The notes under the pieces are model-generated. The model had not been told where the DNA came from. It saw only the letters and a list, made by a program, of their open reading frames with translations, and did not search any database. 64,000 nucleotides of DNA, taken from positions 24,042 to 88,041 of IMG/VR virus record IMGVR_UViG_3300002460_000003; one strand, given 5' to 3'. A program made the position numbers and the translations under genes. Numbering within the stretch: position 1 is the stretch's first letter; the number at the start of each line of letters is the position of its first letter. This DNA is from a virus. Below, piece by piece: positions 19,127 through 47,046 of the stretch.

Positions 19127-19137
19127 GGAGAAGTATC

Positions 19138-19503
19138 ATTGATATTCTACTAGATGAAAGCACTCACGATGCTATATTCTTCAATGGGCCTCTTACAAAA
19201 GAGTATACCACTCAGCCGTATACTCAGACAACTGCACAACGACTTAAGATTCGTCTGCTAACTTTCCAAGAAGAGTATGTTTTTAATACAACATATGGTG
19301 TTCCCTACTGGCAACAGATTCTAGGTAAGAAGACAACTAAAGCAGCAGTTGACCTTTTGTTCCAACAACAAATCCTTCTAGAAACCGGTGTGAAAGAAAT
19401 CACATCCTTTTCTTCAACTCTAGTAAATAGAAATTACTCAATGACTTTCAGAGTGAAGGTTGTTAGCGGTGAAGAAACAACTCCAATTACAATCACCCTG
19501 TAG
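19138..19503 (+). CDS. baseplate wedge subunit (gp25/gpW-like), ATT start; absent from ORF track
   Basis: 121 sense codons (M)DILLDESTHD...QRLKIRLLTF..E...NTTYGVPYWQQILGKK; TAAGGAG 7 nt upstream; in-frame stop at 19117 excludes an upstream canonical start. Confidence 0.85.
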   Translation: MDILLDESTHDAIFFNGPLTKEYTTQPYTQTTAQRLKIRLLTFQEEYVFNTTYGVPYWQQILGKKTTKAAVDLLFQQQILLETGVKEITSFSSTLVNRNYSMTFRVKVVSGEETTPITITL

Positions 19504-19533
19504 TCAATCAGGGAAATATTCTGAGGAAATTAC

Positions 19534-20997
19534 ATGGCATTTGGCATAACTCCAGAAGGATTCGTCCTCAAACGCTTACAAGATATTCTAACAGAGCAAA
19601 GGGTGAAAGCAAGAGAGTTGTTTGGTGATCTGGTAGCCCCCGGCGATGTAGTGGACGTATCAGACAGCTCTGTACTTGGTCGTCTAATCAATATGGATGC
19701 CTTTGGTGATGCTGACCTTTGGGAAGTAGCCCAACAGTCCTACAGCGCTCTTGATCCTAATTCAGCCACTGGTATTGCTCTAGATAACATTGTTCAATAT
19801 GGCGGCATTAGTCGTCAAGGTGCTTCAGCTACAACAGCCATTGGTTTGTTTGCTGGTAGTAATGGTACTCTGATTCCAGCAGGTAATACAGTAGCAGCTC
19901 CAGTTACAGGTACTCAATTCACTGTAACGGACAGCGTTGCATTATCTCCATCGTTGGCTGCTGGTATCACCGTTGCTGTTCTGACTGTAACCGATAGTGT
20001 TAACTATACAATCAACTATACTGTCAGCACTACAACAACAAACACAGTTACCTACAACTCAGGTGTTGGTGCTACAACAGCCAACATCCTAGCTGGTTTA
20101 CAAGCTGAGATAACATCTTCACATCCTTTGCTAATTGCTACAGTTGTAGGAACTACTCTTGTTGTAGACAGAGTTGATGTATTTCAAGCAAGTACGTTCT
20201 CTACTGGTACTCGTTTAAACATTACTAAAGTGAAGAAGATTGGTAGTCTACAGGCAACCGCTGATGGTCCTCTAGAGCAAGAAGCTAACACAATCACGCA
20301 GATTATTACTCCTGTCCTTGGTTGGGATAGTGTTACAAACCCACTTGAAGCATCTGCCGGTACTCTTAAGGAAACTGATGAAGAGCTTCGCATTAGGTTT
20401 CGTAATACTAAACTAGAACGTTCAAGTAACATCCTAGACAGTCTGTACTCAGCACTACTTAATCTTACAGGTGTTGATGAAGTAGCTATCTACGAGAATG
20501 ACACTGACATCACAGACTCTAATGGTGTCCTTCCTCATAGTTTCCTTCCTATTGTACTTGGTGGTAGCTCTCAGTTAATTGCTGACACTATCTGGGAAAA
20601 TAAACCAATGGGCATTAGAAGTCAAGGTAACACAGTAATTAGTGTTACTGATACCCAAGGCTTCCCACATGACATTGGTTTTGAAAGACCAAACCCTGTG
20701 ACAATCTACATGATTATCAATTTAAGCTTGAACCCTGAAGACCCAACTACCTTCCCCGGTGATGGTGTAGCCCAGATTCAAAGTAATATTCAGTCTTATG
20801 CCGGTGACAATCTTGGTGTTGGTAGAGACGTTATTTTCTCTCGGCTATTTACTCCTGTTAACGAAGTTCCGGGACATCAGGTAGACAGTATGTTTATTGG
20901 TACATCCCCAGCGCCTGCAACTACTGCCAATATAATCGTTCCGTTCAATGGTATTGCCAGCTTTGAAACTGTAAATCTTATAATTAATGTGGCATAA
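19534..20997 (+). CDS. baseplate J-like protein
   Basis: MAFGITPEGF, ATGIALD, ETDEELRIR and YENDT motifs. Confidence 0.88.
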   Translation: MAFGITPEGFVLKRLQDILTEQRVKARELFGDLVAPGDVVDVSDSSVLGRLINMDAFGDADLWEVAQQSYSALDPNSATGIALDNIVQYGGISRQGASATTAIGLFAGSNGTLIPAGNTVAAPVTGTQFTVTDSVALSPSLAAGITVAVLTVTDSVNYTINYTVSTTTTNTVTYNSGVGATTANILAGLQAEITSSHPLLIATVVGTTLVVDRVDVFQASTFSTGTRLNITKVKKIGSLQATADGPLEQEANTITQIITPVLGWDSVTNPLEASAGTLKETDEELRIRFRNTKLERSSNILDSLYSALLNLTGVDEVAIYENDTDITDSNGVLPHSFLPIVLGGSSQLIADTIWENKPMGIRSQGNTVISVTDTQGFPHDIGFERPNPVTIYMIINLSLNPEDPTTFPGDGVAQIQSNIQSYAGDNLGVGRDVIFSRLFTPVNEVPGHQVDSMFIGTSPAPATTANIIVPFNGIASFETVNLIINVA

Positions 20998-21006
20998 GGA
21001 GTAGAC

Positions 21007-21798
21007 ATGATTATTCCTTTTGATTCGGAGGATTATCTAGAGACAGCAAGAAGCCAAATCACTGAACAGTTCAAGGATAAAGATATCCTAGACCGTTACC
21101 TACAACTAATCATTGACCAACAATATACAATCCAAGAGGTATTCAAAGACTTACTTCAGAAAAGAAGTATTGATGAAGCTACTGGGGCAACACTAGATAT
21201 TATTGGGGAGATTGTTGGTCAACCAAGAGAACTAATCTCTGCTGATCTATTTGACTTCTTTGGTTTCCAAGGTGCGTTGAAAGCTGGTGGCTACGGGGAT
21301 TTTGGTAATCCGGCAGTTGGTAGTAGATGGTATGACTTTGGACAACCTCTTGGTGGCAACATTCTCCTTGATGATGAAACATATCGTCTGTTCATCAAAG
21401 CTAAGATTCTAAAGAATAATACAGCATCTACTCCTGAAGAATTTATTGCTTTCATTAACTTCTTGTTTGGTACAGCTACTACAGCGTATCTTGCAGAAGG
21501 CGAAGCAGAGTATACCATTCTATTTGGCAGAGAGCTTACAGCTTTCGAGCAGGTGTTGTTGAACTATACATCATCTAGTGCAGGGTATCCATCAAGACTT
21601 ATTCCAAAAACTGTTGGTGTTAGGGTTAATTTTGGTTACTTCCTAGCCGATGATTACTTTGGTTTCCAAGGTGCTCCAGGTGCTAAAGGTTATGGTGATT
21701 TGACAGGAACATATGGCTATGGACTTGGATATGGACTTGGTTACGGTGATTCAGATTTTGCAATTATAGGTGGCGGAACATACGCTACCTTATTTTAA
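21007..21798 (+). CDS. baseplate wedge protein (DUF2612-like)
   Basis: ATGATLDIIGEIVG and LDDETYRLFIKAKI motifs; two FGFQGA..A.GYGD repeats. Confidence 0.8.
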   Translation: MIIPFDSEDYLETARSQITEQFKDKDILDRYLQLIIDQQYTIQEVFKDLLQKRSIDEATGATLDIIGEIVGQPRELISADLFDFFGFQGALKAGGYGDFGNPAVGSRWYDFGQPLGGNILLDDETYRLFIKAKILKNNTASTPEEFIAFINFLFGTATTAYLAEGEAEYTILFGRELTAFEQVLLNYTSSSAGYPSRLIPKTVGVRVNFGYFLADDYFGFQGAPGAKGYGDLTGTYGYGLGYGLGYGDSDFAIIGGGTYATLF

Positions 21799-21813
21799 CT
21801 TTGAGGATAAATA

Positions 21814-22668
21814 ATGGCTTTTAATTCAAAACCATCTGGCATGAATATCGTTTGGGCATCTGCCGGTGATATCCTTGATCCGGGTGATACAAAATATCAA
21901 ACTGGTTGGGGGGTTGAAATTCCACCACGCCAATGGGAAAACTACTCCCAGAATAAACAAGATGGCTTCATGGCTCATGCCAACCAACTCGGTATGGTAG
22001 ATTGGGATGCTGAGACTGAATATCAAGCAAATAAAAGCTATGTACAAGGCACAACTAATGGTACTGTCTACCGTTGTATTCTTACTCATACCAACCAAGA
22101 CCCAGAGCTGGATGTAACTAATACTTATTGGATTATTGCATTCGCTTCGGCTGGTGATTTCTACACTAAGACTGAGACAGATAGTCTTTATTTAGCTAAA
22201 GCTCAGAATCTTGCAGACCTTACAAACACAGCGACTGCTCGGACTAATCTAAGTGTATACTCTCAAGCACAGACTTATACCCAAGCAGAAGTTGATGCTA
22301 AAACAACTGTAGCATCAACAGCACAAGCACAATCATTTGTATCAAATACCACGTTAATTACACCACTAAGACTAAAAGAAGCTTTTCAAGGGTTAAATCA
22401 GAGTATTTCTACTAACGGCTTCCAAAAACTTCCGAATGGATTGATAATTCAATGGGGTGCCCATGTTACAGGAACAGCCCTCACAGAACAAACTGTAAGT
22501 TTTCCTTTAACCTTCCCAACATCAGTATTTTCTGTTGTATTTACAGGAGCATCCTCTGCTGCATCCTCTGCTGCTGTTTGGAGAACTGCTGTACCAACAA
22601 CTTCCGGTTTTAAATATTCAGCGGAGGTTGGGGGGAACACTGTTTTATATATGACCATAGGAATTTAA
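21814..22668 (+). CDS. tail fibre protein
   Basis: KYQTGW and ARTNL motifs; C-terminal GFQKLPNGLIIQWG...FPLTFPT (gp53-like) domain. Confidence 0.85.
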   Translation: MAFNSKPSGMNIVWASAGDILDPGDTKYQTGWGVEIPPRQWENYSQNKQDGFMAHANQLGMVDWDAETEYQANKSYVQGTTNGTVYRCILTHTNQDPELDVTNTYWIIAFASAGDFYTKTETDSLYLAKAQNLADLTNTATARTNLSVYSQAQTYTQAEVDAKTTVASTAQAQSFVSNTTLITPLRLKEAFQGLNQSISTNGFQKLPNGLIIQWGAHVTGTALTEQTVSFPLTFPTSVFSVVFTGASSAASSAAVWRTAVPTTSGFKYSAEVGGNTVLYMTIGI

Positions 22669-22669
22669 T

Positions 22670-23056
22670 ATGCAATATTTTTTCAGTCAAAGTACAAACG
22701 GTTTTTACATCAAACCGTTTAATGAACAAATTCCGAAGGACGCCATTGAATTGTCTAAACTAGAGTATGAGGATGTCCTAGTAAAGCAAGGCAAAGGTTA
22801 TAAACTATCTACAAAAAATGGTAGCTTAGTCACAGAACAATATGACCAATCTGAGAATTACCAAGCCTTAGAGCGTAAATGGAGGAATTCGGAGCTTACC
22901 TATTGCGATATAGAGATATATAAACTACAAGATTCTGATTCTACTGCTAGAAGTTCTATAACAGAGTGGAGAACATATAGAAAACTACTAAGGCGGTGGC
23001 CTGAACACCCCAACTTTCCGGACACCAATTTCCGGCCAACACCACCAGACGCGTAA
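22670..23056 (+). CDS. tail fibre assembly chaperone
   Basis: YFFSQSTNGFY, ERKWRNSEL and YR..LR.WP....FP....RP motifs. Confidence 0.8.
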   Translation: MQYFFSQSTNGFYIKPFNEQIPKDAIELSKLEYEDVLVKQGKGYKLSTKNGSLVTEQYDQSENYQALERKWRNSELTYCDIEIYKLQDSDSTARSSITEWRTYRKLLRRWPEHPNFPDTNFRPTPPDA

Positions 23057-23066
23057 GGAGTTTTAA

Positions 23067-25481
23067 ATGTCACAACAACAATCCCCTTGGGTTGAGGGGG
23101 CATATGGTTGGAGTTTTGGAGAATCTGGCTGGAACCCTGGTATGGATCAGAACTTACTTAAGTTCTCTTTTCTTTTTGATCGTAATGTGGATAGTATTGT
23201 TGCATCCCTCCCTCCTGCTGTAAATGGGCAAGCACATTACAACACAGTAGATAACCGCCTATATTTTGCAGTAGGTACTACTTATTATAGTTGCCCTGTC
23301 CCTAAATGGTTTTCAGTTATTGTTAAGCCTAGTGGAGATGTCTGGCAATTTAATGGGGTAAATCTTGTACAAATAGATAGCCCATCAGACTTAGATATTA
23401 GATTAGATTCACTAGAATTAACAGCTTCCCAGCTTGGTACAGCAGCTTTTGAAGATGTTGCCTTTTTTGCTTCACAATCAGCACTAGATGTTGTAGAAGC
23501 TAACAGCCAAGCATATACTGATGTCTTGCGGACAGATTTAGCTGATAGTGTTGACCAGACAAAAGGTGCATCTCTCGTAGGTTTTGATCCTGCATTGATA
23601 TACCCAACAACTACTGTTGGGGGGTACTTGAATTACACTCCAAGTTTAAATCCAATCATTGTATATGATTGGGATGATTCTACTGGAACAGATAATTCTA
23701 CAGCATTACAGGCATATGTTGATTCTACATATGTATCCCCAACAGTAGTTGGGCGTGGCCGCATTGATCTGCTTAACGGCAGGGCTGCTGCTATCAGCTC
23801 AACTATCCAGATCCTTCAAAAAACCCTTGATCTGTCCGGCAGTGAAGGACTGCTTAAATGGACTGGGACAGCAGGTCTGCCGATGGTCCGGGTGGTCGAT
23901 TCTTCACGATGCCGTATCTCCGACATGATCCTGCTTGGAGATATCACTAACACCCCAAGCGCTGCGATCTATTTCGAAGCAGAGGCCCCACTTGCAACTT
24001 TAGGAACAAACGAAAACCACGTCGTCGAGCGGGTCATAATCGGCCGCAGATGGCTGACGGATACCACCACGGGTGGCAGCACGGACGCCACGCCAGCAGG
24101 AAAAATCACGAATGGCATCGTGATCGGAGGTGCGATTGACGGAAACAATGACGAGTACACAATTCGCAATTGTCAAATCCATTCCGCAGTTGATGCGGGT
24201 ATAGACTTCAAAAACTCTCAGTCAATCTGGTCAATGATTGATGGCGTTCTGACGAACGACTGCAATGTGGGAGTCCGTGTAGGCTGTAACATGAACGCCA
24301 CGCACCTTACCTTCAACCGGAACAAAGTTGCCGATCTAGAAGGGATCAGAAATACAGAAATGTGGATCAATGGTTTTGAATCTGAGAATGCAAAACTAGC
24401 AATATGGTCAAAGGGTGGGGCCAGCTTCTTTGTGCGCGGCGGCAAAATACTTATTAATCAGGCGACTCCCGGTAATTTCACTAGGACGGAAAACGGCGGA
24501 GTACTTTCGCTAAATGACATGCTGATAGTAAGCAGCGGGGCTGGGGCGCAAACATTTTATTTCCGTGCTGCATCCGTCAAGACTGGGGCGTTTCGGCTGC
24601 GCGGGTGTACTATCACTAATGGTAGCCAGCGCGATACATACGATATCGATACTGGAATCATAAGCTCGCAACAACATGAAATTGATATCGAGCACGGGGA
24701 GTTCATCTTTAAGACCCGCGCACCATATCTTGACCGGGCTGTTACCCCCGCGTCTGCCGCTGACGGTAGTTCTGCGTTGATTGGGTCGGGATCTGCAAAA
24801 ACACCGCTAACAAGTTTTTTCCAAGTCGCATATCAGACGGCTATCGGAAACCAGCACTTGACGGTGGCAACCGATGCTGCGACCCAGGTTCGTGCTAGGG
24901 TTTCGAATGTAAGTGGCGGGGCGTTACAGCTGGCTCCTGGGCGCATTCGCTGGATGGCAATGGATGACCATGTACAGTCTATCGGCAGCTTGGCAATTGA
25001 TGTCCCCTTGCTGGCTGCTGGAGCCGGTCAAACGGTAAACATACCGGTTGCAGGTGCACAAATTGGTGATTTCACACTTCACACAACAGATGTGTCGTAT
25101 ACAGGCCCCACTATTACCAGCTACGTGTCAGCGCCCGGGGTTGTATCCCTGCGGGTACAAAACCAATCTGGCGGACCTAGTGATCCGGCATCAGCAGTAT
25201 TAAGCGCTGCGGTTATCAGGCCATCTGGTAACTTTATGGGCGGATTGATAGACCCCGGTATTGTAGAAATGGCCGCAGGCTCTACTACGACACGATCCGT
25301 TACAGTAACGGGCGCACAACTCGGAGCGCATGCTCTAGTCGCATACACCGCAGATATTTTAGGGGTGACGATGACTGCTCATGTATCCGCAGCAAATACT
25401 GTAACGGTTGTTATTTCAAATCTAACGGCAGCGCCAGTGAATTTTCCGGCAGGTGGATTTAAAGTCATGGTTATGTTTTGA
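23067..25481 (+). CDS. tail spike / receptor-binding protein, probable beta-helix depolymerase
   Basis: 804 aa; N-terminal YGWSFGESGW anchor, KGASLVG neck, TDNSTALQ beta-helix cap, repeated C-terminal beta domains. Confidence 0.75.
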   Translation: MSQQQSPWVEGAYGWSFGESGWNPGMDQNLLKFSFLFDRNVDSIVASLPPAVNGQAHYNTVDNRLYFAVGTTYYSCPVPKWFSVIVKPSGDVWQFNGVNLVQIDSPSDLDIRLDSLELTASQLGTAAFEDVAFFASQSALDVVEANSQAYTDVLRTDLADSVDQTKGASLVGFDPALIYPTTTVGGYLNYTPSLNPIIVYDWDDSTGTDNSTALQAYVDSTYVSPTVVGRGRIDLLNGRAAAISSTIQILQKTLDLSGSEGLLKWTGTAGLPMVRVVDSSRCRISDMILLGDITNTPSAAIYFEAEAPLATLGTNENHVVERVIIGRRWLTDTTTGGSTDATPAGKITNGIVIGGAIDGNNDEYTIRNCQIHSAVDAGIDFKNSQSIWSMIDGVLTNDCNVGVRVGCNMNATHLTFNRNKVADLEGIRNTEMWINGFESENAKLAIWSKGGASFFVRGGKILINQATPGNFTRTENGGVLSLNDMLIVSSGAGAQTFYFRAASVKTGAFRLRGCTITNGSQRDTYDIDTGIISSQQHEIDIEHGEFIFKTRAPYLDRAVTPASAADGSSALIGSGSAKTPLTSFFQVAYQTAIGNQHLTVATDAATQVRARVSNVSGGALQLAPGRIRWMAMDDHVQSIGSLAIDVPLLAAGAGQTVNIPVAGAQIGDFTLHTTDVSYTGPTITSYVSAPGVVSLRVQNQSGGPSDPASAVLSAAVIRPSGNFMGGLIDPGIVEMAAGSTTTRSVTVTGAQLGAHALVAYTADILGVTMTAHVSAANTVTVVISNLTAAPVNFPAGGFKVMVMF

Positions 25482-25491
25482 GAATAAATAG

Positions 25492-26064
25492 ATGAGTCCA
25501 ACCTTAAAACAAAAACTCATTGTTTCATTTATTGCTCTGGGGCTTAGTGCCCCAGCAGCATTCTTTGTTTACGATGTCACAATCCCCTCTGAAGGATTAT
25601 ACACTAGCGTGTATTTAGACCCAGTTCAACTCCCCACTGTTTGTGTTGGGAGGCTGGATAGGAAGTTGAAGCTTGGGCAAACATTTACTCTTGATGAATG
25701 TATGGAAATGTTAGCTCAAGATTGGAAAAAACACCAAGCTCAATTAGATAGGGTTGTCAAAGTACCTTACAAATCAGAGTGGCAACAACAAGCTCTTACT
25801 GATTTCACATTCAACCTTGGGATTGGTAATGTCCAGTCTTCAACACTTCTCAAGCTGCTGAATCAAGGGAAGCATGTTGAGGCCTGTAAACAACTTACAC
25901 GTTGGATTAAAGCAGGTGGTAAAACATTAGCTGGTCTTGTCAAACGTAGAAATAAAGAGATGCCATTTTGCATGGGCGAGTTGAGTTGGGATAAACAGCA
26001 ATCCTACAAAGAGTTTAAGAGAGAGTACGATGAAATTAATACCAAACAAAAAGAAGGTTCTTAA
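25492..26064 (+). CDS. endolysin, GH24 lysozyme with probable SAR anchor
   Basis: E-x8-D-x5-T triad (EGLYTSVYLDPVQLPT), FNLG and GLVKRR motifs; weakly hydrophobic N-terminal helix. Confidence 0.88.
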   Translation: MSPTLKQKLIVSFIALGLSAPAAFFVYDVTIPSEGLYTSVYLDPVQLPTVCVGRLDRKLKLGQTFTLDECMEMLAQDWKKHQAQLDRVVKVPYKSEWQQQALTDFTFNLGIGNVQSSTLLKLLNQGKHVEACKQLTRWIKAGGKTLAGLVKRRNKEMPFCMGELSWDKQQSYKEFKREYDEINTKQKEGS

Positions 26065-26272
26065 GTCTTATTCTTTCTTGAGTATGGCTGCTAATTTCCT
26101 AATTGCTTTATCCATCTCAGGTCTGTCTGTATTGGGAGTGTTATCAAGTGAGATTGCCCTTCCTCTCCTTTGTTGTCTTGCTATTGCCTTTGGTATGGCT
26201 GGGCTTGCTGGTCGTTTTGTGGATCAGAATATTGATGATGGCTTACTCGGGGATGAAAAAGATGTTCAGTAG
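26030..26272 (+). CDS. holin
   Basis: 80 aa, two hydrophobic segments, charged C-terminus, within the lysis cassette. Confidence 0.7.
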   Translation: MKLIPNKKKVLKSYSFLSMAANFLIALSISGLSVLGVLSSEIALPLLCCLAIAFGMAGLAGRFVDQNIDDGLLGDEKDVQ

Positions 26273-26690
26273 TCTGACAGTCAAACCCCTCATCATAACT
26301 CTCTTAGCTTCCATAGCCTTAAATGGACTTATGTTGATGGTTTCTAAGCATTATTATGACGCTAGGGCCGAAGCAGTATATAGCCTCAAAGAAGCAGAGA
26401 AAACGATTCTAGAGCAGCTAAAGGCTAAGGAATTAGCCGATAAAGCTTGTGTTATAGCTGACAGTGTAGCCACATCTTTTCAGATTGAGAATAATCAGTC
26501 TGTAGAAGAAAGGGATAAGGAATTATCCTCCATACAAAGTATCCCAAGCACTCCTAAGAAAGTTGAGGTAACAGTTGATGATGTTAAAAGCAATGTTGCT
26601 GACGTTGATGATAGGCTGCCTAGTAGCATTATCAGCGTGCTCTCCTCAACAGATAATCGTGTACAGAGACAAACCAATCCTAACCCCTGA
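26262..26690 (+). CDS. i-spanin (Rz-like)
   Basis: N-terminal transmembrane helix followed by coiled-coil; overlaps o-spanin. Confidence 0.75.
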   Translation: MFSSLTVKPLIITLLASIALNGLMLMVSKHYYDARAEAVYSLKEAEKTILEQLKAKELADKACVIADSVATSFQIENNQSVEERDKELSSIQSIPSTPKKVEVTVDDVKSNVADVDDRLPSSIISVLSSTDNRVQRQTNPNP

Positions 26691-39062: not shown

Positions 39063-40140
39063 AATCCACCTCCATAGCTTTTAAAAAATCACGAACATGA
39101 CCAACATCTTTAGTAACATCTGTTCGCATCCTCAACAACCTAAACTGTTCGTTCAAATGGTCAAGCCAATTACGTTCGGATACATCACCCCTGAAAGATT
39201 TAAATGGTTGTTTCTCATCTCCGTAGAACGCTCTATAAGCCTCTACAACACGTTCAAATACTTCTTTAGGGCTTTGTGCATCTCCAACTAAAGCTCTTGC
39301 TGTCTTCTCTCCTAAACCCTTTCCTGAGCGCCTAATTGCATACTTCTTATGTAGTTCATCAGTAAGCTTTGGTAAGCCCGGAATTGAGTCAATTGTATCT
39401 CCGCTGAGGTGCTGACTTGCCAAGTTCTTAATAGCTTCAAGTGGTGTTATCTCAACTAATCCAAGTTCAGGTTTATCGAAGTTGTAGTGGATTTGTGGAT
39501 ATTGTCCTAAATCTTTATCACACCAAACCCCAACAACACTGAGCTTATCAAAGTCCCTCTTAGCTTTAATCCAACCTTTCCAAAGCTCCTGAGTTACAAT
39601 CTCATCTGTCTCAACACCTTCTGCTATAACCATATGTGCTTTGTATTTAGTCAACATGTATTCTTTGACAACATCATACAACAAAGGTTTACTTGGTCGT
39701 TCATTTTTATATGGTTGGGTCTGAGCAATATCATAACGGAAATTCTCACCAACACCAAAACAAATCTTGAAGTCTTTACACCAAGGCTGGTTTGTGATTA
39801 CCTCAATCTTAGATTTGAATCGCCCTTTAACAATTTGCTCTGGTGTTACAACAGCACCACTATAGTTAGTAGTCCCTGTAAGCAAACGAACACCAGCAAC
39901 AACTTCAAAAGCATCTGGTGAAACTTTATCCAATCCTTTCTCAATCTTTTTAGCATTCACTTCAGCAAGCCAACCACCTTCTTTTTTCCAGTGATCACCA
40001 AAGAAAGCTGTCTGGTTTTTAAACTCCCTAGTCCAGTTGGTTTCTTTGTGTGTGACAGTGACGAATGTTTCTTGAGCTGCTAGGGCAGCATGAATGATGA
40101 GAGTATCAACGTCAATTATTGCTGTGTATTGTTTAGTCAT
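39055..40140 (-). CDS. 5'-3' exonuclease (T7 gp6 / RNase H-like)
   Basis: IDVD, NFR..YK.ER, ETD, DKD, GDTIDSIPG and GEKTA motifs. Confidence 0.88.
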   Translation of the reverse strand: MTKQYTAIIDVDTLIIHAALAAQETFVTVTHKETNWTREFKNQTAFFGDHWKKEGGWLAEVNAKKIEKGLDKVSPDAFEVVAGVRLLTGTTNYSGAVVTPEQIVKGRFKSKIEVITNQPWCKDFKICFGVGENFRYDIAQTQPYKNERPSKPLLYDVVKEYMLTKYKAHMVIAEGVETDEIVTQELWKGWIKAKRDFDKLSVVGVWCDKDLGQYPQIHYNFDKPELGLVEITPLEAIKNLASQHLSGDTIDSIPGLPKLTDELHKKYAIRRSGKGLGEKTARALVGDAQSPKEVFERVVEAYRAFYGDEKQPFKSFRGDVSERNWLDHLNEQFRLLRMRTDVTKDVGHVRDFLKAMEVDYE

Positions 40141-40146
40141 AATACC

Positions 40147-40467
40147 TCACCAGACATGAGCACCACCACGAACACGAGGTTTAACTCCAGTTAGTTCTTC
40201 AAAGCTATTGGCAGCAGCTTGTACTTCTGCAAACCATTGTTCATTAATCTCGTGATAGTTTGGAATCTTAAATCCAATAAACCAACTCTCAGAGGGAGAA
40301 TCATAATACGGACTTGCGGTTTCAAAGTAACACTCAATCACTTCATGCGGGTCTTCACAAGCTTCATGTTTAACTGTTTCACCACCTTCAATAATCTTTT
40401 CAAAGAAGTCCTCTAACTCATCATAAGAGCAGCCAACAAGCAAACTGTGGTCTACATCAATACCCAT
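40147..40467 (-). CDS. hypothetical protein
   Basis: Start MGIDVD after GGAGG. Confidence 0.6.
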   Translation of the reverse strand: MGIDVDHSLLVGCSYDELEDFFEKIIEGGETVKHEACEDPHEVIECYFETASPYYDSPSESWFIGFKIPNYHEINEQWFAEVQAAANSFEELTGVKPRVRGGAHVW

Positions 40468-40512
40468 ATCTACCTCCAAAGAATAAGGAGCATATTTCAG
40501 CTCCTATTTATA

Positions 40513-40761
40513 TTAACTATACATCTCTTGAATTTCTTGAAGCTTCTTCAGCTTATCTGCCTTACCCTGCAAATCATCAGATTTAGCTTTAGCTACAGCA
40601 GCATTGATAATCTCTTTTACACTATCCTTCTCAAAACCCTCAGTGTTGTATTCTTTATCGTAAGTAAACTCCCCAATTAGCTCCTTCATATCTTCCTTGT
40701 TGGTGATAGCTTCTTGAGCCAGTTGGTATGCACGGTTGTAAAGTGATTGAAGTTCTTTCAT
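40513..40761 (-). CDS. small helical protein, possibly dsDNA-binding (DsbA/GapR-like)
   Basis: EDMKEL...GF...I pattern, next to SSB; family call tentative. Confidence 0.45.
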   Translation of the reverse strand: MKELQSLYNRAYQLAQEAITNKEDMKELIGEFTYDKEYNTEGFEKDSVKEIINAAVAKAKSDDLQGKADKLKKLQEIQEMYS

Positions 40762-40847
40762 TATTTATTTCTCCTCAGTTTGTTTAAGTTTTATAATGCC
40801 CATTACTTTGAAATACTCTCCATAATGGGCAAGTTATTGCTTATTGA

Positions 40848-41528
40848 TCAGAACGGCAGTGGATCGGCGTTATCATCTTCAGGTTCTTGTTCTGGTGCAG
40901 CTTTGGCTGGAACGTCTTGTTCAGCAGCCTTTCCTTCAACCTTCTTCACCTTGTAAGACACACCAAGTACATCATCCTCAACACTATCAGCAGCGGCTTT
41001 CTGTTCATAAGGAACATGCTCAAGCACTTGCAGAGTATCCAGAGTGACAACCACCTGATTGTCTTGGTTACGATAGCCAAACAGTTTCAGTGTACAAACA
41101 GAACCATTACCTACGTTCTCAGTGAAGGCAGAACCATCAGCACCAATCACATTGACGGTCATTGGATTCCCTTTTTTACTGAACTCAGGCTTGGCTACAG
41201 TGAAGCCGTACATACCCTCAACAGCATCATAATTTACTTTCCCCTCCTCAACTTGGGAAGACAGTGGATATTTGATTCGACGTGGTGGCTTAGAGGTTTT
41301 ATCCTTACCAACAAGTGCAAAACTCTTATTCACCATCACTTCATCAAGCAGCTTATCTTTAGTCTCTTCATCAACAAACACAGTCACACTGTATTCACGA
41401 TCATCAGATTGATACTTCTTCTTAGGATCATGAACTGTAGCATAGAATACTGAAGCATCTTTGATATAGAGATTCACAGTTTCCAGACCACCAGTTTTAG
41501 GCAGTTCACGAATTACGATACTAGTCAT
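40848..41528 (-). CDS. single-stranded DNA-binding protein (gp2.5-like)
   Basis: VGNGS...LQVLEHVPY motif and acidic tail ending DPLPF. Confidence 0.8.
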   Translation of the reverse strand: MTSIVIRELPKTGGLETVNLYIKDASVFYATVHDPKKKYQSDDREYSVTVFVDEETKDKLLDEVMVNKSFALVGKDKTSKPPRRIKYPLSSQVEEGKVNYDAVEGMYGFTVAKPEFSKKGNPMTVNVIGADGSAFTENVGNGSVCTLKLFGYRNQDNQVVVTLDTLQVLEHVPYEQKAAADSVEDDVLGVSYKVKKVEGKAAEQDVPAKAAPEQEPEDDNADPLPF

Positions 41529-42039
41529 ATTTATTTCCTCTTTCGGTTGTGTATAATTTAGTCACTTAAAGTTGAGACTATTACATTTGCCTTTCGGCTG
41601 TTACTTGTGTTTCCACAAATTCATCAAATCTTCCCAGTCTCAGCAATAATCTCTAGTGCTTGGAAGCTAGGGACTACTTGTCGGATACCACTATACTCGT
41701 TTACATCAGCAGTTGCAAGTAGTTGTAGAATTTTATACATACCACTCCATGAGCTTGCAGACCGTTGTAGTGCTTTACCTTTTCGAGCTAGACGCTTTTT
41801 AGTTTTCAGTTTCATTTGTTTCTCCTTAGATTACTTGATTACATAGACGAACAGCTTGGTTTAGGGATTCTTCACTGGCTAGCTCACTTTCAATTGATAC
41901 CTCATCCAGCTCAAAGTCTCCCTTATTAACATTTTCCCATGCAAGTTCCAGAGCTTCGTCTTCATTTTCCGCATCTTGAACCACAACAGAACAATACGCT
42001 TTAACTAACACCTCATACGATGGCATGTTGCTTCTCCTC

Positions 42040-42255
42040 TTATTTACTAAACAGTTTAACAAGACCTAGGAATACTAGTGCAATACCAGCTAGACTCAGT
42101 ACAAAAGCAATTGGTAGCCACAATGGACTAAGTACCCACCACCAACTCCAAGCAGCTACAGCACCAATCCCAGCAAGCTTTAGAGTGATGAACACAATAG
42201 CCAGCAAACCACAGAAACCAATACCACCAGTTGAAGCTTCAGATTTGTTACTCAT
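42040..42255 (-). CDS. small membrane protein
   Basis: GIGF.GLL.IVFI.LKL.G...WSWWWVLSPLW conserved phage membrane motif. Confidence 0.75.
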   Translation of the reverse strand: MSNKSEASTGGIGFCGLLAIVFITLKLAGIGAVAAWSWWWVLSPLWLPIAFVLSLAGIALVFLGLVKLFSK

Positions 42256-42266
42256 CAGTGTACTCC

Positions 42267-42560
42267 TTATTTAAGTTTAGATTCATCAAAAGCTTCAAAT
42301 GTAATGATAGCTTTACATGACTGCATCTTACCATTTTTGTAGTAACTTTTCCACTGGTCGCCTTGCTCCTCACCATCCCCTTCAACAACGATCAGTTGGT
42401 CAGGGAACATTTTACTTACCTCTTTGCAATGTTCGTCACAACCATACCACTTGGCATTCATAGTACCATTGTACCAGCCACCGTAGCCGGAAGCCTCCTC
42501 AATAGCTGTAATAACTTCAGGGCTGTTACTGGAAATATCAAAGTCTGTGTAATAACCCAT
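42267..42560 (-). CDS. hypothetical protein
   Basis: MGYYTDF...KWY...GDGEE conserved phage pattern. Confidence 0.65.
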   Translation of the reverse strand: MGYYTDFDISSNSPEVITAIEEASGYGGWYNGTMNAKWYGCDEHCKEVSKMFPDQLIVVEGDGEEQGDQWKSYYKNGKMQSCKAIITFEAFDESKLK

Positions 42561-42743
42561 CCTAACGTACCTCCTTGACAGCTTCCAATACAAAGCGCTT
42601 CTGGATAATCTTAGCATTAATATTACTTTCTTTCCAATACTTTTTCTCTGCTCTCGCCTCACTCCGAGTAAAGCACTTATAAGACGGACCATTCTCTGTT
42701 ACAACAAGGTACTCATATTTTGTAGTCATTTTAAATCTCCTCT

Positions 42744-42986
42744 TTAAACATAGCCAATTTGATAGAACTCGTCAAGTGCAGTAATGACGTTTGTATATGC
42801 TTGTGCACATAGAGGACCACTTGCATCCTTCTCAAGACTTTCAAGAAGCTTCTTCACCACATCCATAGTAAACGTCACATCAGCGACAGCTAAATCTACA
42901 TCAAGAATTAGCTCAAGGGATTCATCCCATGTTAGATGACTAATCATATCTCTAACATCGATCTCCACATTTGTTAATACATTCAT
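42744..42986 (-). CDS. hypothetical protein
   Basis: 80 aa downstream of a TTGACA element at 43064-43069 (minus strand). Confidence 0.6.
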   Translation of the reverse strand: MNVLTNVEIDVRDMISHLTWDESLELILDVDLAVADVTFTMDVVKKLLESLEKDASGPLCAQAYTNVITALDEFYQIGYV

Positions 42987-43089
42987 TCATCCTCTCCTCA
43001 TTCAATTTATCAATGCCCTTTATCTCTTGAGCTGGTATGTATTATTTCAGATTTACAGGGTTGTGTCAAGGGAATATTTGGTTATTTTA

Positions 43090-45234
43090 TCAGTGAATGT
43101 CTGAATACCTATAACCATATTGCGTGTCACACCCAAGCTTCCTACGTAGTTTATACTTTTCATTCACAATGTCAATAGATGATAGAATAATTTCCTTAAA
43201 CTCCTCCTTATACTTCGGTAAGTCCTTGATTACTAAGACATTCTCATCATGAAAGGATGCTGTCAAGGTCTTCTTGCCATACTTAGCCTGCATTTGGTCT
43301 AGGATAGCATCTACCCACATATCAAAGAAATAGCTGCCTGTACCTTGGGCAAGTGTAGAGAACCTATCAGACTCTTTTCGTAATGCATAAGCGAACCCGT
43401 TAACTGGGTTGACAAGCCACTTGTTACCCTTGCTGTCACGGATTACAACCTGTTCTTCTGCAATAGCTTTTACAGACCAGTTTAGCTTCCAGTAAGCCTC
43501 ATGTAGAGCTTTACCTTCTGCAAGACTTACACCTGCTGCCTGAGCAATCTTGGCAGCCCCAGCATTATACACAGAAGCATAGTTAGTTGTCTTACCTTTC
43601 TTACGTGCTGCCTTTGCATTAGCCGATTTATAACCACGCTTGAAGTCTTCAAACTCTTTCTGTGTAACCATTCTAGCAGTGAGTGCCATCAAAATGTGTG
43701 GGTCAAAGTCATCCTCCTGCATTGTTGCAACATAATCAGGGTCATGAGCCAACATGAAGTGATGCTTGCAACGGTCTTCAAGGCTGCTAAGGTCAGAGCC
43801 TACACTTGTTTTACCTTTGCCAGCAATCAGCACACCACGAATGTCTTTACCATATGCTTTATCTACTCCGGGCAGATTAACCAACTCTCGATGCTGAACC
43901 CTGAGTGTATTAGTGAAGCCACCAATACGGGCTTGTAACCATTTACCATCCTTCAAGTCACGGATGAAACCCTTAACCAACCCTAAGCGGTGCTTTGCTA
44001 CGTTGTAGGCTGCATACTTACGAATCTCTGGTACTTGTTCAGCCAGCTCTAGTACAGACTCACACAACTCCTTACCATCGTCACCACCTACTGTTATCTG
44101 TGGAATAGCACGTTCCTCTGGACGACACTCTTTCCACTCATTCCACTTGCTATGATGTGACCCTTCCTTTGGTTTCTTAGCAATCCAAGCATTAAATTTA
44201 TCTTCGTCTTTCTCATATTTGAAAGATATTGGTTCCCAGCCATAGGAGTAAAGCAGGCTTTTAACCTGAATAGGTGATGATGCACTTGGTTCTTCATAAC
44301 CAGTGAGCACCTTAAACACACCTTTTACATCTGTTTCTTCAACCTTCAGTGTACCATTTTCATCCACTTCCTTAGCTTTAAAAGTCTCCATCAACTCTTT
44401 CCACTTAACACCGATAACAGAAAGGGTTCCATCCTTCTTGAATGACTTCTTTGGGGCTTCCTTCTTAGAATACTGAGGAACTCTTGGCATAACGCTTTCA
44501 AGTTCATCCTTTGCAGCATTACATATTACTTCAAGCTTGGCCTCTGTTTCAAGTAGAAGATCAACATCAACTTCCCACATTGTTTTCTCTTGTAGCCGAG
44601 CGCAGTCCATCTTGAACATCAAAAATGTCAGCAGGCGGTTGATGTGATCTTCAACAGACAAACCAACAAGATCATCAATAGCTAAAGATTCATCATCAGA
44701 AATCCGCTTACCACCAACTGCCCCAGCATCAATCTCAACCTTAACAGTTGTGTAGATTTCTATTAGGCGTTGTTTTAAGTCTTTCCACAAAGCTTGGTTG
44801 ATCTTAACGTCTTCTTTTACACGATTCTCATACACTTCATAAGGCTGTTCAGACCAATCATCTACGGCAGGTTTCTCAATACCATAGTCTTCATGGAATG
44901 AACCCAAACCATGTACACGACGATTAAAATTGAGATACCAGCTTACAGCCAACGTATCAATTAGCATCAAACGTGACAAATCAATATTAAACAGCTTCTC
45001 CATAAGTGGAATATCAAATGATATACCGTTATGCATGACCATTGGAATTTCATTATCCATGTGGTATAGAAAGCACTTAACGATTCTGTCTGACTGAGTG
45101 CTACCGTTAAATGTAGAGACTCCCTTACCATCTAACTGATAACCCAATACATGCAGCTTTGTGGCTACATCTAGGAGTCCATCAGATTCTAGGTCAGCCA
45201 CAGTGGCCTTTTTCCAGTTGTAAATCTTTTTCAT
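43090..45234 (-). CDS. family A DNA polymerase with 3'-5' exonuclease
   Basis: DLESDG (Exo I), HNGISFD, motif A DLSSLEDR, motif B RKKGKTTNY, motif C HDE. Confidence 0.95.
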   Translation of the reverse strand: MKKIYNWKKATVADLESDGLLDVATKLHVLGYQLDGKGVSTFNGSTQSDRIVKCFLYHMDNEIPMVMHNGISFDIPLMEKLFNIDLSRLMLIDTLAVSWYLNFNRRVHGLGSFHEDYGIEKPAVDDWSEQPYEVYENRVKEDVKINQALWKDLKQRLIEIYTTVKVEIDAGAVGGKRISDDESLAIDDLVGLSVEDHINRLLTFLMFKMDCARLQEKTMWEVDVDLLLETEAKLEVICNAAKDELESVMPRVPQYSKKEAPKKSFKKDGTLSVIGVKWKELMETFKAKEVDENGTLKVEETDVKGVFKVLTGYEEPSASSPIQVKSLLYSYGWEPISFKYEKDEDKFNAWIAKKPKEGSHHSKWNEWKECRPEERAIPQITVGGDDGKELCESVLELAEQVPEIRKYAAYNVAKHRLGLVKGFIRDLKDGKWLQARIGGFTNTLRVQHRELVNLPGVDKAYGKDIRGVLIAGKGKTSVGSDLSSLEDRCKHHFMLAHDPDYVATMQEDDFDPHILMALTARMVTQKEFEDFKRGYKSANAKAARKKGKTTNYASVYNAGAAKIAQAAGVSLAEGKALHEAYWKLNWSVKAIAEEQVVIRDSKGNKWLVNPVNGFAYALRKESDRFSTLAQGTGSYFFDMWVDAILDQMQAKYGKKTLTASFHDENVLVIKDLPKYKEEFKEIILSSIDIVNEKYKLRRKLGCDTQYGYRYSDIH

Positions 45235-45291
45235 TTGCCCTCCTGTGTTGTGTCAGCAACAATACCACAAATAACTGACCAAGTAAATAGC

Positions 45292-47010
45292 TTAGAGTGA
45301 ATCTCCTTCCCACTCATACTGTAGGAGGAGTCCTGTTGCTTGGTCATAACGTGTCTTAAATTTATCTTCGCCACCAAACATGCGATTTTTGATACAACCC
45401 AAGAAGCTGTTAGCTTTTAGGTCTCCCTGTGCATGTTTGTTACGTTCAAAGCTCATAATCAATGGGAAAGCACGCATGATACCACGACTGCCTGTAAGCT
45501 GACTAGCAAGCACTTCACCGCCATTCTCATGGTCTTTCATATCCTTACCCTTTGGTGGGTTAAGGTGACTATAGAGGTCAATGTGGACATCCAGTTCTGC
45601 TGCAAGGTTAGCCAGCTCACTAGACCACTTATTAATAAACTCATTAGCTTCACCACTTGATAGATGGTCAACTAGTCGTGTCATGTTATCAATAGCATGA
45701 AAGCGTACACCATACTCCATTGTATTGTAGCGGATTGCTTTTACAATTTCTTCAATGTCAAATCTGTTTTGTGCTGCTTGTCCATCAGACTCCCATAGGA
45801 ATAGTTTACCCTCTAGGCTATAAGCTGTCTCTAGATACTGCTCTCGGTGACGTTCATGAATATTTGGTACGTGGTATGGGATACCATCAATTTTACCAGC
45901 AATGTTATACAAAGTGGAGCGGTTAGGTTCTTCAAGCAAGGCAACAAACACTTTTTCATTGTGTTGTGTGATGTTGTGTGCGTGCTTCATGTGTGCGATC
46001 AGTGTTTTACCTAAACCAACACCTGCTGCTGTACAAGTAGCCTCTCCCATACGCTGAGTACAGTTCATATCTGTAAACGCCTGCCAAGGATAAGCAAAGC
46101 CGGGCTTAGGTGGCTCAGAGTCACGAGACAAGACAGTAGACACGCCAACAACACCTTCAGTAACAGGCTTTGCACTCTTCCAAATACAGAAGTCTGCAAA
46201 CAAGTCACTATCCCCACGTTGTAGGGCTTCATTAGCATCCTTGGCGTTAGTTGGGTAAGTGTTCACTTTAACGTCTGGCATAATCTTCTGTACATCTTTT
46301 ACAGCTTTCTTACCAGCCTCATCGTTATCAAAAACAAGAACAATTTCAGTGAAGAATTTGTTAATCTCCTTACGCATACGTCCTAGAGTAGTAACAGCAC
46401 TACCCACACCATGAGGCAGACTTACCACAGAGAACTTGTTGTAAGAGCTTTTACGCTTCTCTGCATGAGCCTCAAGCATCTGCTCTAGTGCCCGACAATC
46501 CCACTCACCTTCTGTGATGTATAGGCGAGGCTTAGGGCCATTAGCATTCTTCTTTGCAATCTCCCAATTGAATAGGTCAGCACCTTTGATATCACCAACA
46601 GACCACATTGCTTTCTTATCAAGCATGATGGCTTTATAGCCAAGTAGTTTACCCTCAAGTGTATAAGGGAAGTTAAAGGTAAAAGGTGTTACGCCATCAA
46701 ACTCGCTGTAAGCCAGCTTAATACCAGATTTAGCAAAGTATTCAGGGTTAATGCCCCGATGAACAAACTTAGGAGCTTTTAGGTTACGAATCTCTTGGAT
46801 TTCTTCGTTGATTTCATCCTCTGATTTTCGCTTAGGTGGCTTTGGTAGCTTACCATTATAAGGGTCTTCTATATATGCCTCAAGACCTTTTGCAGCACAG
46901 CTAAAGCAATAACCAGAGAACGTATTTTTACCGTCATCATAGAACACTTGCAGGCTGTTCTCAGACTTACAATGTTCAACAGCATGTTTAATCTTTTCTA
47001 CGCAGCTAAT
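45292..47010 (-). CDS. primase-helicase, ATT start 21 codons upstream of the ORF-track start
   Basis: Zn-finger region (C..CFSC), TOPRIM ITEGEWD and FDNDEAG, Walker A GVGLGKT, SHL and GSR motifs; GGAGGTG 4 nt before ATT. Confidence 0.88.
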   Translation of the reverse strand: MSCVEKIKHAVEHCKSENSLQVFYDDGKNTFSGYCFSCAAKGLEAYIEDPYNGKLPKPPKRKSEDEINEEIQEIRNLKAPKFVHRGINPEYFAKSGIKLAYSEFDGVTPFTFNFPYTLEGKLLGYKAIMLDKKAMWSVGDIKGADLFNWEIAKKNANGPKPRLYITEGEWDCRALEQMLEAHAEKRKSSYNKFSVVSLPHGVGSAVTTLGRMRKEINKFFTEIVLVFDNDEAGKKAVKDVQKIMPDVKVNTYPTNAKDANEALQRGDSDLFADFCIWKSAKPVTEGVVGVSTVLSRDSEPPKPGFAYPWQAFTDMNCTQRMGEATCTAAGVGLGKTLIAHMKHAHNITQHNEKVFVALLEEPNRSTLYNIAGKIDGIPYHVPNIHERHREQYLETAYSLEGKLFLWESDGQAAQNRFDIEEIVKAIRYNTMEYGVRFHAIDNMTRLVDHLSSGEANEFINKWSSELANLAAELDVHIDLYSHLNPPKGKDMKDHENGGEVLASQLTGSRGIMRAFPLIMSFERNKHAQGDLKANSFLGCIKNRMFGGEDKFKTRYDQATGLLLQYEWEGDSL

Positions 47011-47046
47011 GATACACCTCCAAATTTAGTTGTCTCTTTATTGAGA

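Follow-up and report, generated by a model that had tools for sequence, protein, structure and literature searches.

The AUU start codon of Escherichia coli infC is autoregulated through IF3 proofreading, and sensitivity to IF3 is expected for any AUH start (AUU, AUC or AUA). In Staphylococcus aureus, cvfC1, ccpN and infC are described as having AUU or AUA starts, all with extended Shine-Dalgarno (SD) sequences, and the non-canonical starts of cvfC1, ccpN and citZ are reported to reach about 10% of AUG in reporter fusions (PMC13009471, Nat Commun 2026). According to the cryo-EM part of that report, an AU that follows the SD is base-paired to the A-U lying 5′ of CCUCC, and GU can fully take its place; the starts of cvfC1 and ccpN are given there as conserved among relatives. 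In a survey of start-codon switches, weaker start codons were described as accompanied by SDs that are stronger or better conserved, with positions -1 to -3 coupled to the switches (Belinky, Rogozin, Koonin 2017, PMC5622118). For phages, a review (PMC3014915) describes the split ribosome-binding site of T4 gene 25, based on the work of Nivinskas 1999 and Malys and Nivinskas 2009, in which a hairpin draws the SD, located 27 nt upstream, nearer to the AUG.

The window analysed here is a 64,000-nt stretch of a viral metagenome record (IMGVR_UViG_3300002460_000003, positions 24,042 to 88,041). Two genes in it start with ATT (Table 1). As the earlier note had read them, both carry GTATC-ATT behind an SD, at 19133-19140 on the plus strand and 47015-47008 on the minus strand, with an in-frame ATC directly before each ATT (19135-19137 and 47013-47011, respectively). 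The TAA at 19124-19126, inside the baseplate SD, is the stop codon of an upstream 261-aa baseplate gene. The primase site holds GGAGGTGTATC, with the start-proximal [AG]U pairing that characterises an extended SD, and its SD:anti-SD duplex was calculated at -13.1 to -14.6 kcal/mol. The baseplate site (-9.0 to -9.3 kcal/mol) fits that description partly, having TAAGGAG, two mismatches and then GTATC; GGTG is absent from it, and its SD is a weakened copy, differing at two positions, of the TAAGGAGGTGT allele found in relatives.

Table 1. Position of the two ATT-start genes and their initiation signals in the window
Feature	Position	Strand	Remark
SD TAAGGAG, baseplate wedge gene	19124..19130	+	AA spacer, then GTATC
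GTATC spacer (-5..-1), baseplate gene	19133..19137	+	includes in-frame ATC
Baseplate wedge subunit gene (gp25/W-like, 121 aa)	19138..19503	+	start ATT 19138-19140
Extended SD GGAGGTG, primase/helicase gene	47021-47015	-	then TATC
TATC spacer (-4..-1), primase gene	47014-47011	-	with G 47015 = GTATC
DNA primase/helicase gene (T7 gp4-like, 572 aa)	45292..47010	-	start ATT 47010-47008

The product of the baseplate gene matched the baseplate wedge subunit family phrog_120 (E 5e-25), and that of the primase gene matched phrog_239 (E 3e-122) and the Pfam domains Toprim and DnaB_C. The baseplate reading frame opens after TAA 19117-19119 (plus strand), and no in-frame ATG, GTG or TTG occurs until 79 codons past the opening. 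The primase frame is open from an in-frame TAA five codons 5′ of the ATT onward; its first canonical codon is a GTG 26 codons past the opening, which has a poor SD (-2.7 kcal/mol) and would, if used, leave the protein without the zinc-finger region's first Cys and His, and no internal start led by an SD was found in the first 200 codons. In a census of 179 chosen open reading frames (ORFs) of the 88-kb genome, a usable canonical start was missing from these two only. The baseplate ATT aligned with GTG of Pseudomonas phage vB_PsaM_M1 and with ATG, GTG or TTG in 101 of 121 orthologue rows. With the ATT placed against these canonical starts, N-terminal residues were conserved from residue 2 on, the Asp at residue 2 being invariant. 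Likewise, the primase ATT aligned with TTG, GTG or ATG in 17 relatives and with ATT in 2, and for other proteins with ATH (ATT, ATC or ATA) starts the alignments to PHROG profiles began at residues 1-5 and profile positions 2-6. Each AUH codon is found where orthologues start, in a frame lacking a usable canonical start, and as judged from these alignments both ATT codons are genuine homologous start positions.

Orthologues of the baseplate gene were collected from 159 loci, which gave 121 distinct start contexts: ATG 58, GTG 23, TTG 15, ATC 8, ATA 8, ATT 3 and six more that were canonical after the alignment was shifted. ATH starts accounted for 19 of the 121 contexts (16%), and 18 of these 19 had GGTGT ending at -4 (-8..-4), with constant spacing and the consensus TAAGGAGGTGT-RTY-ATH. 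For comparison with canonical starts, a 121-row table was made from 120 relatives' contexts and the window, one relative shorter than 90 residues being left out. The GGTGT motif was present in 18/20 ATH rows versus 2/101 canonical rows, the two ATH rows devoid of it being the window and L118. Downstream of the motif, the ATH rows had T at -4 (19/20), A or G at -3 (20/20), T at -2 (17/20) and C or T at -1 (19/20). The mean SD:anti-SD duplex was -14.4 kcal/mol in ATH rows and -7.8 kcal/mol in canonical rows (Mann-Whitney p 7e-11, kinship ignored). The ATH state changed 15 times on the tree of the 121 orthologues; supported branches gave 9 independent pairs, and in a mean of 8.7 of them the motif changed in the same direction (sign test, median p 0.004). 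Across the baseplate tree, ATH starts and the GGTGT motif co-vary.

The start codons of the primase relatives (n=21) were TTG 14, GTG 2, ATG 1 and ATT 3, one distant locus being set apart. AUH starts recur at both genes (19/121 baseplate contexts, 3/21 primases) without being fixed, the majority of relatives having canonical starts. One ATT-start primase, L248, has the ordinary context taaggaaaatcaaa ATT, indicating that the motif is not obligatory.

The motif was also sought beyond these two genes by scanning IMG/VR for the exact pattern AAGGAGGTGT followed by 3 nt and AT, with 112-118 stretches listed as matches per scan. ORFs were required to have at least 80 codons, a frame opening no more than 30 codons upstream and no in-frame canonical start upstream; for ATH, canonical starts were also excluded from the next four codons. 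Among the matches listed, ORFs starting with ATH and ATG numbered 18 and 24 behind an ATC spacer, 13 and 29 behind GTC, 5 and 28 behind AAC, and 1 and 19 behind AAA, respectively. Grouped into distinct BLAST families, again among the matches listed, the RTC spacers preceded 16 ATH and 27 ATG families, versus 5 and 42 for the control spacers AAA and AAC (Fisher p 0.005); with the baseplate family removed, RTC still preceded 15 ATH and 27 ATG families (p 0.0056). The AAC spacer, with C at -1 alone, was intermediate (4 ATH and 24 ATG families among the matches listed), and RTC was less clearly separated from it (p 0.034 among the same matches). In phage genes of unrelated families, ATH starts are associated with an RTC spacer behind the strong SD. 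GTC behaves like ATC, so an in-frame ATC is not required as a second near-cognate codon, and a G.U pair appears to be tolerated in the spacer. The 27 ATG families reveal that the motif alone does not dictate ATH, and at the remaining GGAGGTG+4 nt sites, from roughly 3 Mb of phage loci, ATG followed 21 times and ATH once, doubtfully. The ATH families behind the motif included tape measure, prohead protease, baseplate wedge, tail proteins and primase. The claim in the earlier note that the shared context is no coincidence and is tied to non-AUG initiation is borne out by the 18/20 ATH rows, the tree test and the RTC enrichment.

The 3′ tail of 16S rRNA is the simplest recogniser of such a motif, and the two sites are probably weak AUH starts rescued by maximal, start-proximal SD pairing with that tail. 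The initiator tRNA would read both ATT codons, which would become usable through an unusually long SD helix extending toward the start codon. The consensus TAAGGAGGUGU-RUY-AUH could pair all 13 nt of the single-stranded tail (E. coli G1530-A1542) provided that U(-4) is bulged out, and GUAUC would form the start-proximal end of the helix, with G(-5) and then R(-3), U(-2) and Y(-1). The predicted duplex has 10 bp, a one-base bulge and 3 bp, with -17.2 kcal/mol, calculated on a tail that may not be that of the host; from this model we infer contact with 16S positions 1530-1532. Since -4 is T in 19/20 ATH rows and a pure bulge should tolerate other bases, the actual register may differ. The primase site has the motif in full, and the baseplate site has a copy weakened at two positions with GUAUC kept. 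Expression from the AUH starts would be reduced, the likely outcome being a low, tightly positioned initiation rate for two proteins needed in small amounts, and dependence on IF3, presumed from the start codon, would be a by-product of its proofreading. One of the ATH families is, however, a major tail protein, a high-copy product that fits poorly with a low-copy rationale.

Compared with the described systems, the phage sites resemble the S. aureus type as reported in that AUH replaces AUG behind a strong extended SD with [AG]U shortly after the SD core, and the published search motif AGGN[AG]T accommodates the phage AGGTGT (PMC13009471). Unlike that type, the genes here are phage genes; the phage consensus is longer, TAAGGAGGTGT-RTY reaching to -1, where the preferred C or U could pair with G1530, and the ATH state toggles with canonical starts (15 changes among the 121 orthologues). 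The E. coli infC start is similar in having AUU, a good SD and an expected discrimination by IF3, but its context is ggaggaataaggt ATT instead of the phage GGAGGTGT-RTY, and the codon of the phage genes varies among relatives; furthermore, neither phage gene codes for IF3, so that no feedback loop is evident. The coupling reported by PMC5622118 concerns, as described there, GUG and UUG, whereas the phage ATH starts have a discrete, near-invariant upstream allele. T4 gene 25, as reviewed in PMC3014915, is also a gp25-type wedge subunit with an unusual, conserved initiation region, in another phage group. Assignment to its structure-assisted SD was rejected: the phage sites have an adjacent SD, their unusual element is the start codon, and the initiation regions (100 nt) fold worse than shuffles (z +1.2 for baseplate and +1.0 for primase), which gives no indication of a structural switch. 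The two genes would add a phage case to the mechanism described from S. aureus (2026).

It is possible, though we hold it only tentatively, that AAGGAGGUGU-RUY marks a distinct, portable class of phage initiation region in which AUU, AUC or AUA is licensed by the entire 16S tail to G1530. If so, pairing would continue right up to mRNA position -1, and a discrete allele would have been swapped repeatedly with an ordinary SD plus AUG, GUG or UUG in at least 16 unrelated families. Genes of this class may depend on host initiation fidelity (IF3, growth state) or on particular host ribosomes.

The earlier note had gone further, taking GTATC-ATT as a signal that ties the synthesis of primase and baseplate wedge to IF3, a phage factor or an sRNA for timed or conditional expression. 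AUH starts are inherently under IF3 proofreading, as established for E. coli infC, and the context is both specific and recurrent; the efficiency of the ccpN AUA start is, in addition, reported to be medium-dependent (PMC13009471). Such dedicated control is nevertheless unlikely and found no support in the variable start codon, the tRNA set or the sRNA complementarity. The earlier note had named ATG at both sites in relatives as evidence against its proposal, and canonical starts do largely prevail there (101/121 baseplate rows, 17/21 primases), the non-canonical codons being ATT, ATC or ATA. The codon is not ATT-specific, as ATC (8) and ATA (8) outnumber ATT (3) at the baseplate site. Nor do the two genes change start type in concert: of the nine genomes possessing both, three use ATH for the baseplate gene, and the primase gene uses it in the window alone. 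No initiator-like tRNA was found among the tRNAs of the genome, which are tRNA-Asn, -Thr and -Arg only. Complementarity to an sRNA was evaluated for two candidate regions: with the 49-kb non-coding region, either site fell at the 0.19-0.87 quantile of random windows, and with the CCUCC hairpins (genome position 22.8 kb) the sites ranked 68th and 21st against 163 canonical sites, as controls do. The infC context itself differs, and the presence of the motif in many unrelated phages makes one common phage factor unlikely. Membership in the class of infC-type, IF3-autoregulated AUU starts was rejected, given that relatives have TTG, GTG, ATG, ATT, ATC or ATA and not a strictly conserved AUH.

It is quite improbable that the two starts decayed independently to ATT in genes tolerant of low expression, with AT-rich spacers and a strong SD accounting for the likeness. 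The bare 8-mer is indeed not enriched in the window (3 seen versus 2.42 expected; 47/100 shuffles reach 3), and of its 4 copies genome-wide the other 2 lack an SD and lead frames of only 21 and 11 codons. ATT is also common as the -1 codon before ATG in this genome (10/163), TATT-ATG is among the commonest contexts and TATY occurs in 7/163, so that a single ATG to ATH change in such a context would yield TATT-ATH. Against this, GTATC stands at -5..-1 in 0/163 canonical starts of the genome (P 9e-4 under their position matrix), and the fixed spacing of GGTGT before ATH and the family-level RTC difference described above would both be left without explanation. Moreover, AUU switches are given as about 1 in 61,358 bacterial AUG starts (PMC5622118), versus the 15 ATH changes in 121 orthologues here.

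Still less probable is the spread of one mobile SD-spacer-ATH allele through recombination where the upstream gene meets the wedge gene, the scatter on the tree being mosaicism. Two relatives with near-identical proteins, L006 (ATC, ggtgtatt) and L007 (ATG, ordinary SD), differ in the whole upstream block, and at the primase gene ggagGTGTATC ATT of the window takes the place, as a block, of ggagAATTTAAA TTG of relatives; modules are mosaic as well, G008 having the same primase and no detectable baseplate J homologue. However, at least 15 further gene families, unrelated to this one and on unrelated contigs, have the motif before ATH, which homologous recombination cannot account for, and the block variants ATC, GTC, ATT and GTT at -3..-1 suggest evolution in place. 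Exchange of this kind is compatible with the long-helix explanation of how the sites function.

That the ATTs are misassembled ATGs or reflect frameshift or read-through from an upstream frame is hardly credible: although the record is a metagenome assembly and the GTG within GGAGGTG opens a short out-of-frame ORF, ATH occurs in 19 other assemblies at the baseplate site and ATT in 2 at the primase site, that GTG is missing from the window's baseplate site, abuts the SD without a spacer and is followed by TAT or TGT depending on the allele, with no slippery site, and orthologues independently have a canonical start at this very residue. A programmed +1/-1 frameshift or read-through of the prfB type was discarded as a class, the frames being open only 5-6 codons upstream. 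The earlier note had judged two independent sequencing errors unlikely, and at the baseplate site the independent Logan contigs of X6 and X7, from two other studies, had 0 differences over 19103-19400, so no error exists there; a contig of X4, which begins only at 19130, agreed too. For the primase site the corresponding evidence is one relative, L023, with the same context and T at -1 (ggaggtgtatt ATT).

Weak starts in other core genes, also listed in the earlier note, were confirmed for nrdA (TTG), nrdB (GTG), the metallo-phosphoesterase (TTG) and the tail completion protein (GTG). The GTG start given there for the spike holds if the spike is taken to be the upstream 261-aa gene, the identity as a spike being itself putative; the product of this gene matched the baseplate assembly protein phrog_3216 (E 2.4e-6) and one Pfam N-terminal domain.

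Sequence inspection confirmed that GTATC-ATT lies behind a Shine-Dalgarno (SD) sequence at two sites, one on each strand, as the earlier note had claimed, in a phage record of 88,041 bp (40% G+C, direct terminal repeats), bases 24042-88041 of which form the window. The gene at the first site is flanked by a 261-aa baseplate gene on one side and a Baseplate_J gene on the other, and that at the second adjoins a family-A DNA polymerase gene. At both sites the reading frame opens only a few codons 5′ of the ATT and a usable canonical start (ATG, GTG or TTG) is absent. The baseplate ORF has no in-frame ATG/GTG/TTG until 79 codons after its opening; in the primase ORF the first in-frame canonical codon is a GTG, 26 codons past the frame opening and with a poor SD (-2.7 kcal/mol), use of which would cost the protein the first Cys and His, in the zinc-finger region. 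In a census that chose 179 ORFs, all but these two had a usable canonical start. The first 200 codons of the primase contain no SD-led canonical start, and an internal start like that of T7 gene 4B was therefore rejected.

The two ATT start sites, their genes and other features discussed (window coordinates)
Feature	Strand	Coordinates	Length	Sequence or PHROG match
Baseplate start site	+	ATT 19138-19140		TAAGGAG-AA-GTATC-ATT-GAT
Primase start site	-	ATT 47010-47008		GGAGGTG-TATC-ATT-AGC
Baseplate wedge subunit	+		121 aa	phrog_120, E 5e-25
T7 gp4-like primase/helicase	-		572 aa	phrog_239, E 3e-122
Region between divergent genes		48964-49454	~490 nt	
Tail assembly chaperone	+	12886-13200	104 aa	phrog_1613
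Open frame after the chaperone	+	13275-13442	96 codons	
Gene upstream of the sheath ORF		9409-9960		
Sheath ORF	+	9857-11287, from ATG 9857		

The bare 8-mer GTATC-ATT is not enriched, with 3 copies in the window versus 2.42 expected, and the remaining two of the 4 copies in the whole genome lack an SD and head open frames of just 21 and 11 codons. As a start context GTATC is unusual in this genome: among 163 canonical starts (135 ATG, 14 TTG and 14 GTG), none had GTATC at -5 to -1 and seven had TATY (Y, C or T), and the probability of GTATC under the position matrix of these starts was 9e-4. Assembly error is excluded at the baseplate site, because contigs from sequencing runs X6 and X7, of two further studies, showed zero differences over 19103-19400.

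In the closest cultured relative, Pseudomonas phage vB_PsaM_M1, a GTG occupies exactly the position of the window's baseplate ATT. Metagenomes and IMG/VR, scanned by alignment, gave 160 loci of baseplate orthologues, 159 of them readable and representing 121 distinct contexts, in which the homologous codon was ATG (58), GTG (23), TTG (15), ATC (8), ATA (8) or ATT (3), 6 further contexts being canonical after an alignment shift. GGTGT ending at -4 was found, with invariant spacing, in 18 of the 19 contexts having ATT, ATC or ATA (ATH), the consensus of which was TAAGGAGGTGT-RTY-ATH-GAY (R, A or G). For tree construction, a table of 121 rows was made from the window and the contexts of 120 relatives, one relative with fewer than 90 residues being left out; the motif (GGTGT ending at -4) was present in 18/20 ATH rows versus 2/101 canonical rows, and the predicted SD:anti-SD duplex averaged -14.4 versus -7.8 kcal/mol (p 7e-11, a value that ignores kinship). 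The only ATH rows without GGTG were a relative's locus, L118, and the window's own baseplate site, which is two positions off the consensus, keeps GTATC, and has an SD predicted to be only moderate. The only canonical rows with GGTGT at -8 to -4, L093 and L186, combine the strong motif with an ATG start (ggtgtatt ATG) and can be regarded as 'intermediate' alleles.

The maximum-likelihood tree required 15 changes of ATH state and 14 of the motif, counts that may be inflated because the tree was built on about 120 residues; of 9 independent pairs taken on supported branches, an average of 8.7 showed the motif changing with the ATH state (sign test, median p 0.004). Junction recombination could have contributed to these changes. 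Locus L006 and loci L007/L031 encode near-identical wedge proteins behind entirely different upstream blocks, with aaggaaggtgtatt before ATC in the former and ttaaggatctttgct before ATG in the latter, suggesting that SD, spacer and start codon are swapped or evolve together, as a block. Belinky et al. reported that weaker starts accompany stronger SDs and that bacterial switches to AUU are extremely rare (PMC5622118, main text); against this rarity the 15 ATH changes are notable, and the orthologue comparison suggests that start codon and ribosome-binding site can toggle as a unit far oftener than bacteria switch to AUU.

The spacer was examined in unrelated phage genes by scanning IMG/VR with the SD held fixed, as AAGGAGGTGT plus three bases plus AT, and reading the base that followed and the ORF downstream (112-118 stretches listed per scan). 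In all spacer sets, ORFs had at least 80 codons, a frame opening at most 30 codons upstream and no upstream in-frame canonical start; ATH ORFs were additionally required to lack a canonical start among the four codons that follow. Among the matches listed, the ATH and ATG ORFs numbered 18 and 24 behind the spacer ATC (-3 to -1), 13 and 29 behind GTC, 5 and 28 behind AAC, and 1 and 19 behind AAA. Counted as distinct BLAST families among the matches listed, RTC (ATC or GTC) gave 16 ATH and 27 ATG versus 5 and 42 for the controls AAC and AAA together (Fisher p 0.005), and 15 and 27 when the baseplate family, the source of the motif, was left out (p 0.0056). Because RTC is enriched before ATH relative to control spacers at a fixed SD, the five bases of GTATC matter for the ATH initiation context. 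With other spacers, GGAGGTG plus 4 nt preceded ATG 21 times and ATH once, doubtfully, in about 3 Mb of fetched phage loci.

The ATH families among the matches listed included two of tape-measure proteins, a head maturation protease, tail proteins, a major tail protein and an amidotransferase, and PHROG alignments of the proteins began within the first few residues; the inclusion of the high-copy major tail protein is counted as a weak point, as is the occurrence of the motif before ATG in many families. Long ORFs with apparent ATT, ATC or ATA starts behind AAGGAGGTGT-RTC were seen at loci L267, L276, L282, L286, L294, L299, L502, L534, L610 and others, on unrelated phage contigs. Tandem near-cognate codons (ATC-ATT) were ruled out as the relevant feature, GTC spacers being as ATH-enriched as ATC; because GTC does as well, an additional near-cognate codon in the form of the in-frame ATC is not required. 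Genome G009 offered a third candidate for an ATH start (agaggtgtaga ATA, 152 aa), which was rejected on the ground that its homologue in genome G006 starts at the downstream Met, and other motif-first matches in nine genomes were inside longer ORFs or short.

At the DNA level, the cultured-phage collection yielded no relatives of the primase region and one weak match to the baseplate region, so the comparisons were made with protein sequences and in IMG/VR. In a set of 21 IMG/VR rows (window included; 55-88% identity, aligned from residue 1), the homologous primase start codon was TTG in 14, GTG in 2, ATG in 1 and ATT in 3, and one distant locus (1/21) had an ATG three codons upstream. The ATT-start primases were those of the window, L023 (ggaggtgtatt ATT) and L248 (taaggaaaatcaaa ATT). 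At L248 (IMGVR_UViG_3300005577_000040, locus position 601), where the primase is 58% identical to that of the window, the ATT stands in an ordinary context and looks like an independent ATT start that lacks the GGTGT-RTY motif; this locus shows that the motif is not obligatory for the use of ATT. The contig of L023, G008, is a 96.6-kb phage whose ATT-start primase has 74% identity to the window's, but in which neither the wedge protein nor the Baseplate_J protein of the window has a detectable homologue; the replication and tail modules form a mosaic.

The shared GTATC-ATT had been read as a possible sign of dedicated control by IF3, a phage factor or an sRNA. Its tie to non-AUG initiation is upheld by the ATH-motif association and the RTC enrichment, whereas a dedicated factor is not. 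The primase does not share the ATC/GAT complementarity by which a small hairpin could present the start codon of the baseplate gene, and both initiation regions fold worse than shuffles, so a structural switch there is not supported. An sRNA is disfavoured by the complementarity of the 49-kb non-coding region and of the CCUCC hairpins (genome position 22.8 kb) to the sites, which was at control level, and coordinated control of both genes by the sites being uncoordinated among the nine genomes holding both. Neither an IF3 gene nor an initiator-like tRNA was found in the phage genome, and an Rfam search gave three tRNAs only. The 49-kb region itself is visibly G+C-rich, contains none of the ORFs of the 50-aa list and matched no Rfam family at the gathering threshold.

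Most simply, the recogniser would be the ribosome's own 16S tail. The consensus could pair with all 13 nt of the single-stranded 16S 3′ tail with U(-4) bulged, at a predicted -17.2 kcal/mol computed with an assumed tail sequence. R(-3), U(-2) and Y(-1) could pair, wobble allowed, with U1532, A1531 and G1530. A variant tail with an extra A, the perfect complement without a bulge, was rejected, its 15-mer in rRNA context occurring in 0 of the 120 genome matches listed.

In an S. aureus initiation complex resolved by cryo-EM, the SD core is followed by an AU that pairs with the A-U upstream of CCUCC and for which GU substitutes fully; cvfC1, ccpN and infC have AUU/AUA starts, each with an extended SD, and in reporter fusions cvfC1, ccpN and citZ gave, from their non-canonical starts, about 10% of AUG output (PMC13009471, main text). 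This start-proximal extended SD pairing is a direct precedent for the proposed phage pairing, the phage sites being distinguished by a sharper consensus and by switching at an unexpectedly high rate; the ATT sites would be a phage instance of the mechanism, and our sequence comparisons suggest that the pairing, described in 2026 for cellular genes of S. aureus, is also widespread in phages. The E. coli infC start context differs from the phage motif, and T4 gene 25, whose product belongs to the same family as the wedge protein, also has an unusual initiation region, of a different kind (PMC3014915, main text). The papers searched, supplements aside, contained no description of the motif with ATT, ATC or ATA starts in phages; the supplement of PMC13009471 may bear on the comparison.

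Standard gene callers disallow ATT, ATC and ATA starts, so that such genes are dropped or shortened: here the 121-aa baseplate protein disappears and the primase is left with an incomplete zinc finger, and the ORFs behind AAGGAGGTGT-RTC in unrelated contigs would probably be shortened or missed. The motif offers a simple rule to rescue ATH-start genes in phage genomes and metagenomes, and the natural series of sequence variants can be used for asking how near the P site an SD helix can reach; the finding is of practical use in annotation and of moderate interest for translation-initiation biology.

The tail assembly chaperone is followed by an open frame whose first ATG is 41 codons in; programmed frameshift pairs of tail chaperones usually have this arrangement, upstream of the tape measure region. 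The sheath ORF, taken from its ATG, overlaps the upstream gene by about 100 nt, and its alignment to the tail-sheath profile begins only at residue 45; its true start is probably later, perhaps at the TTG assumed in the earlier note.
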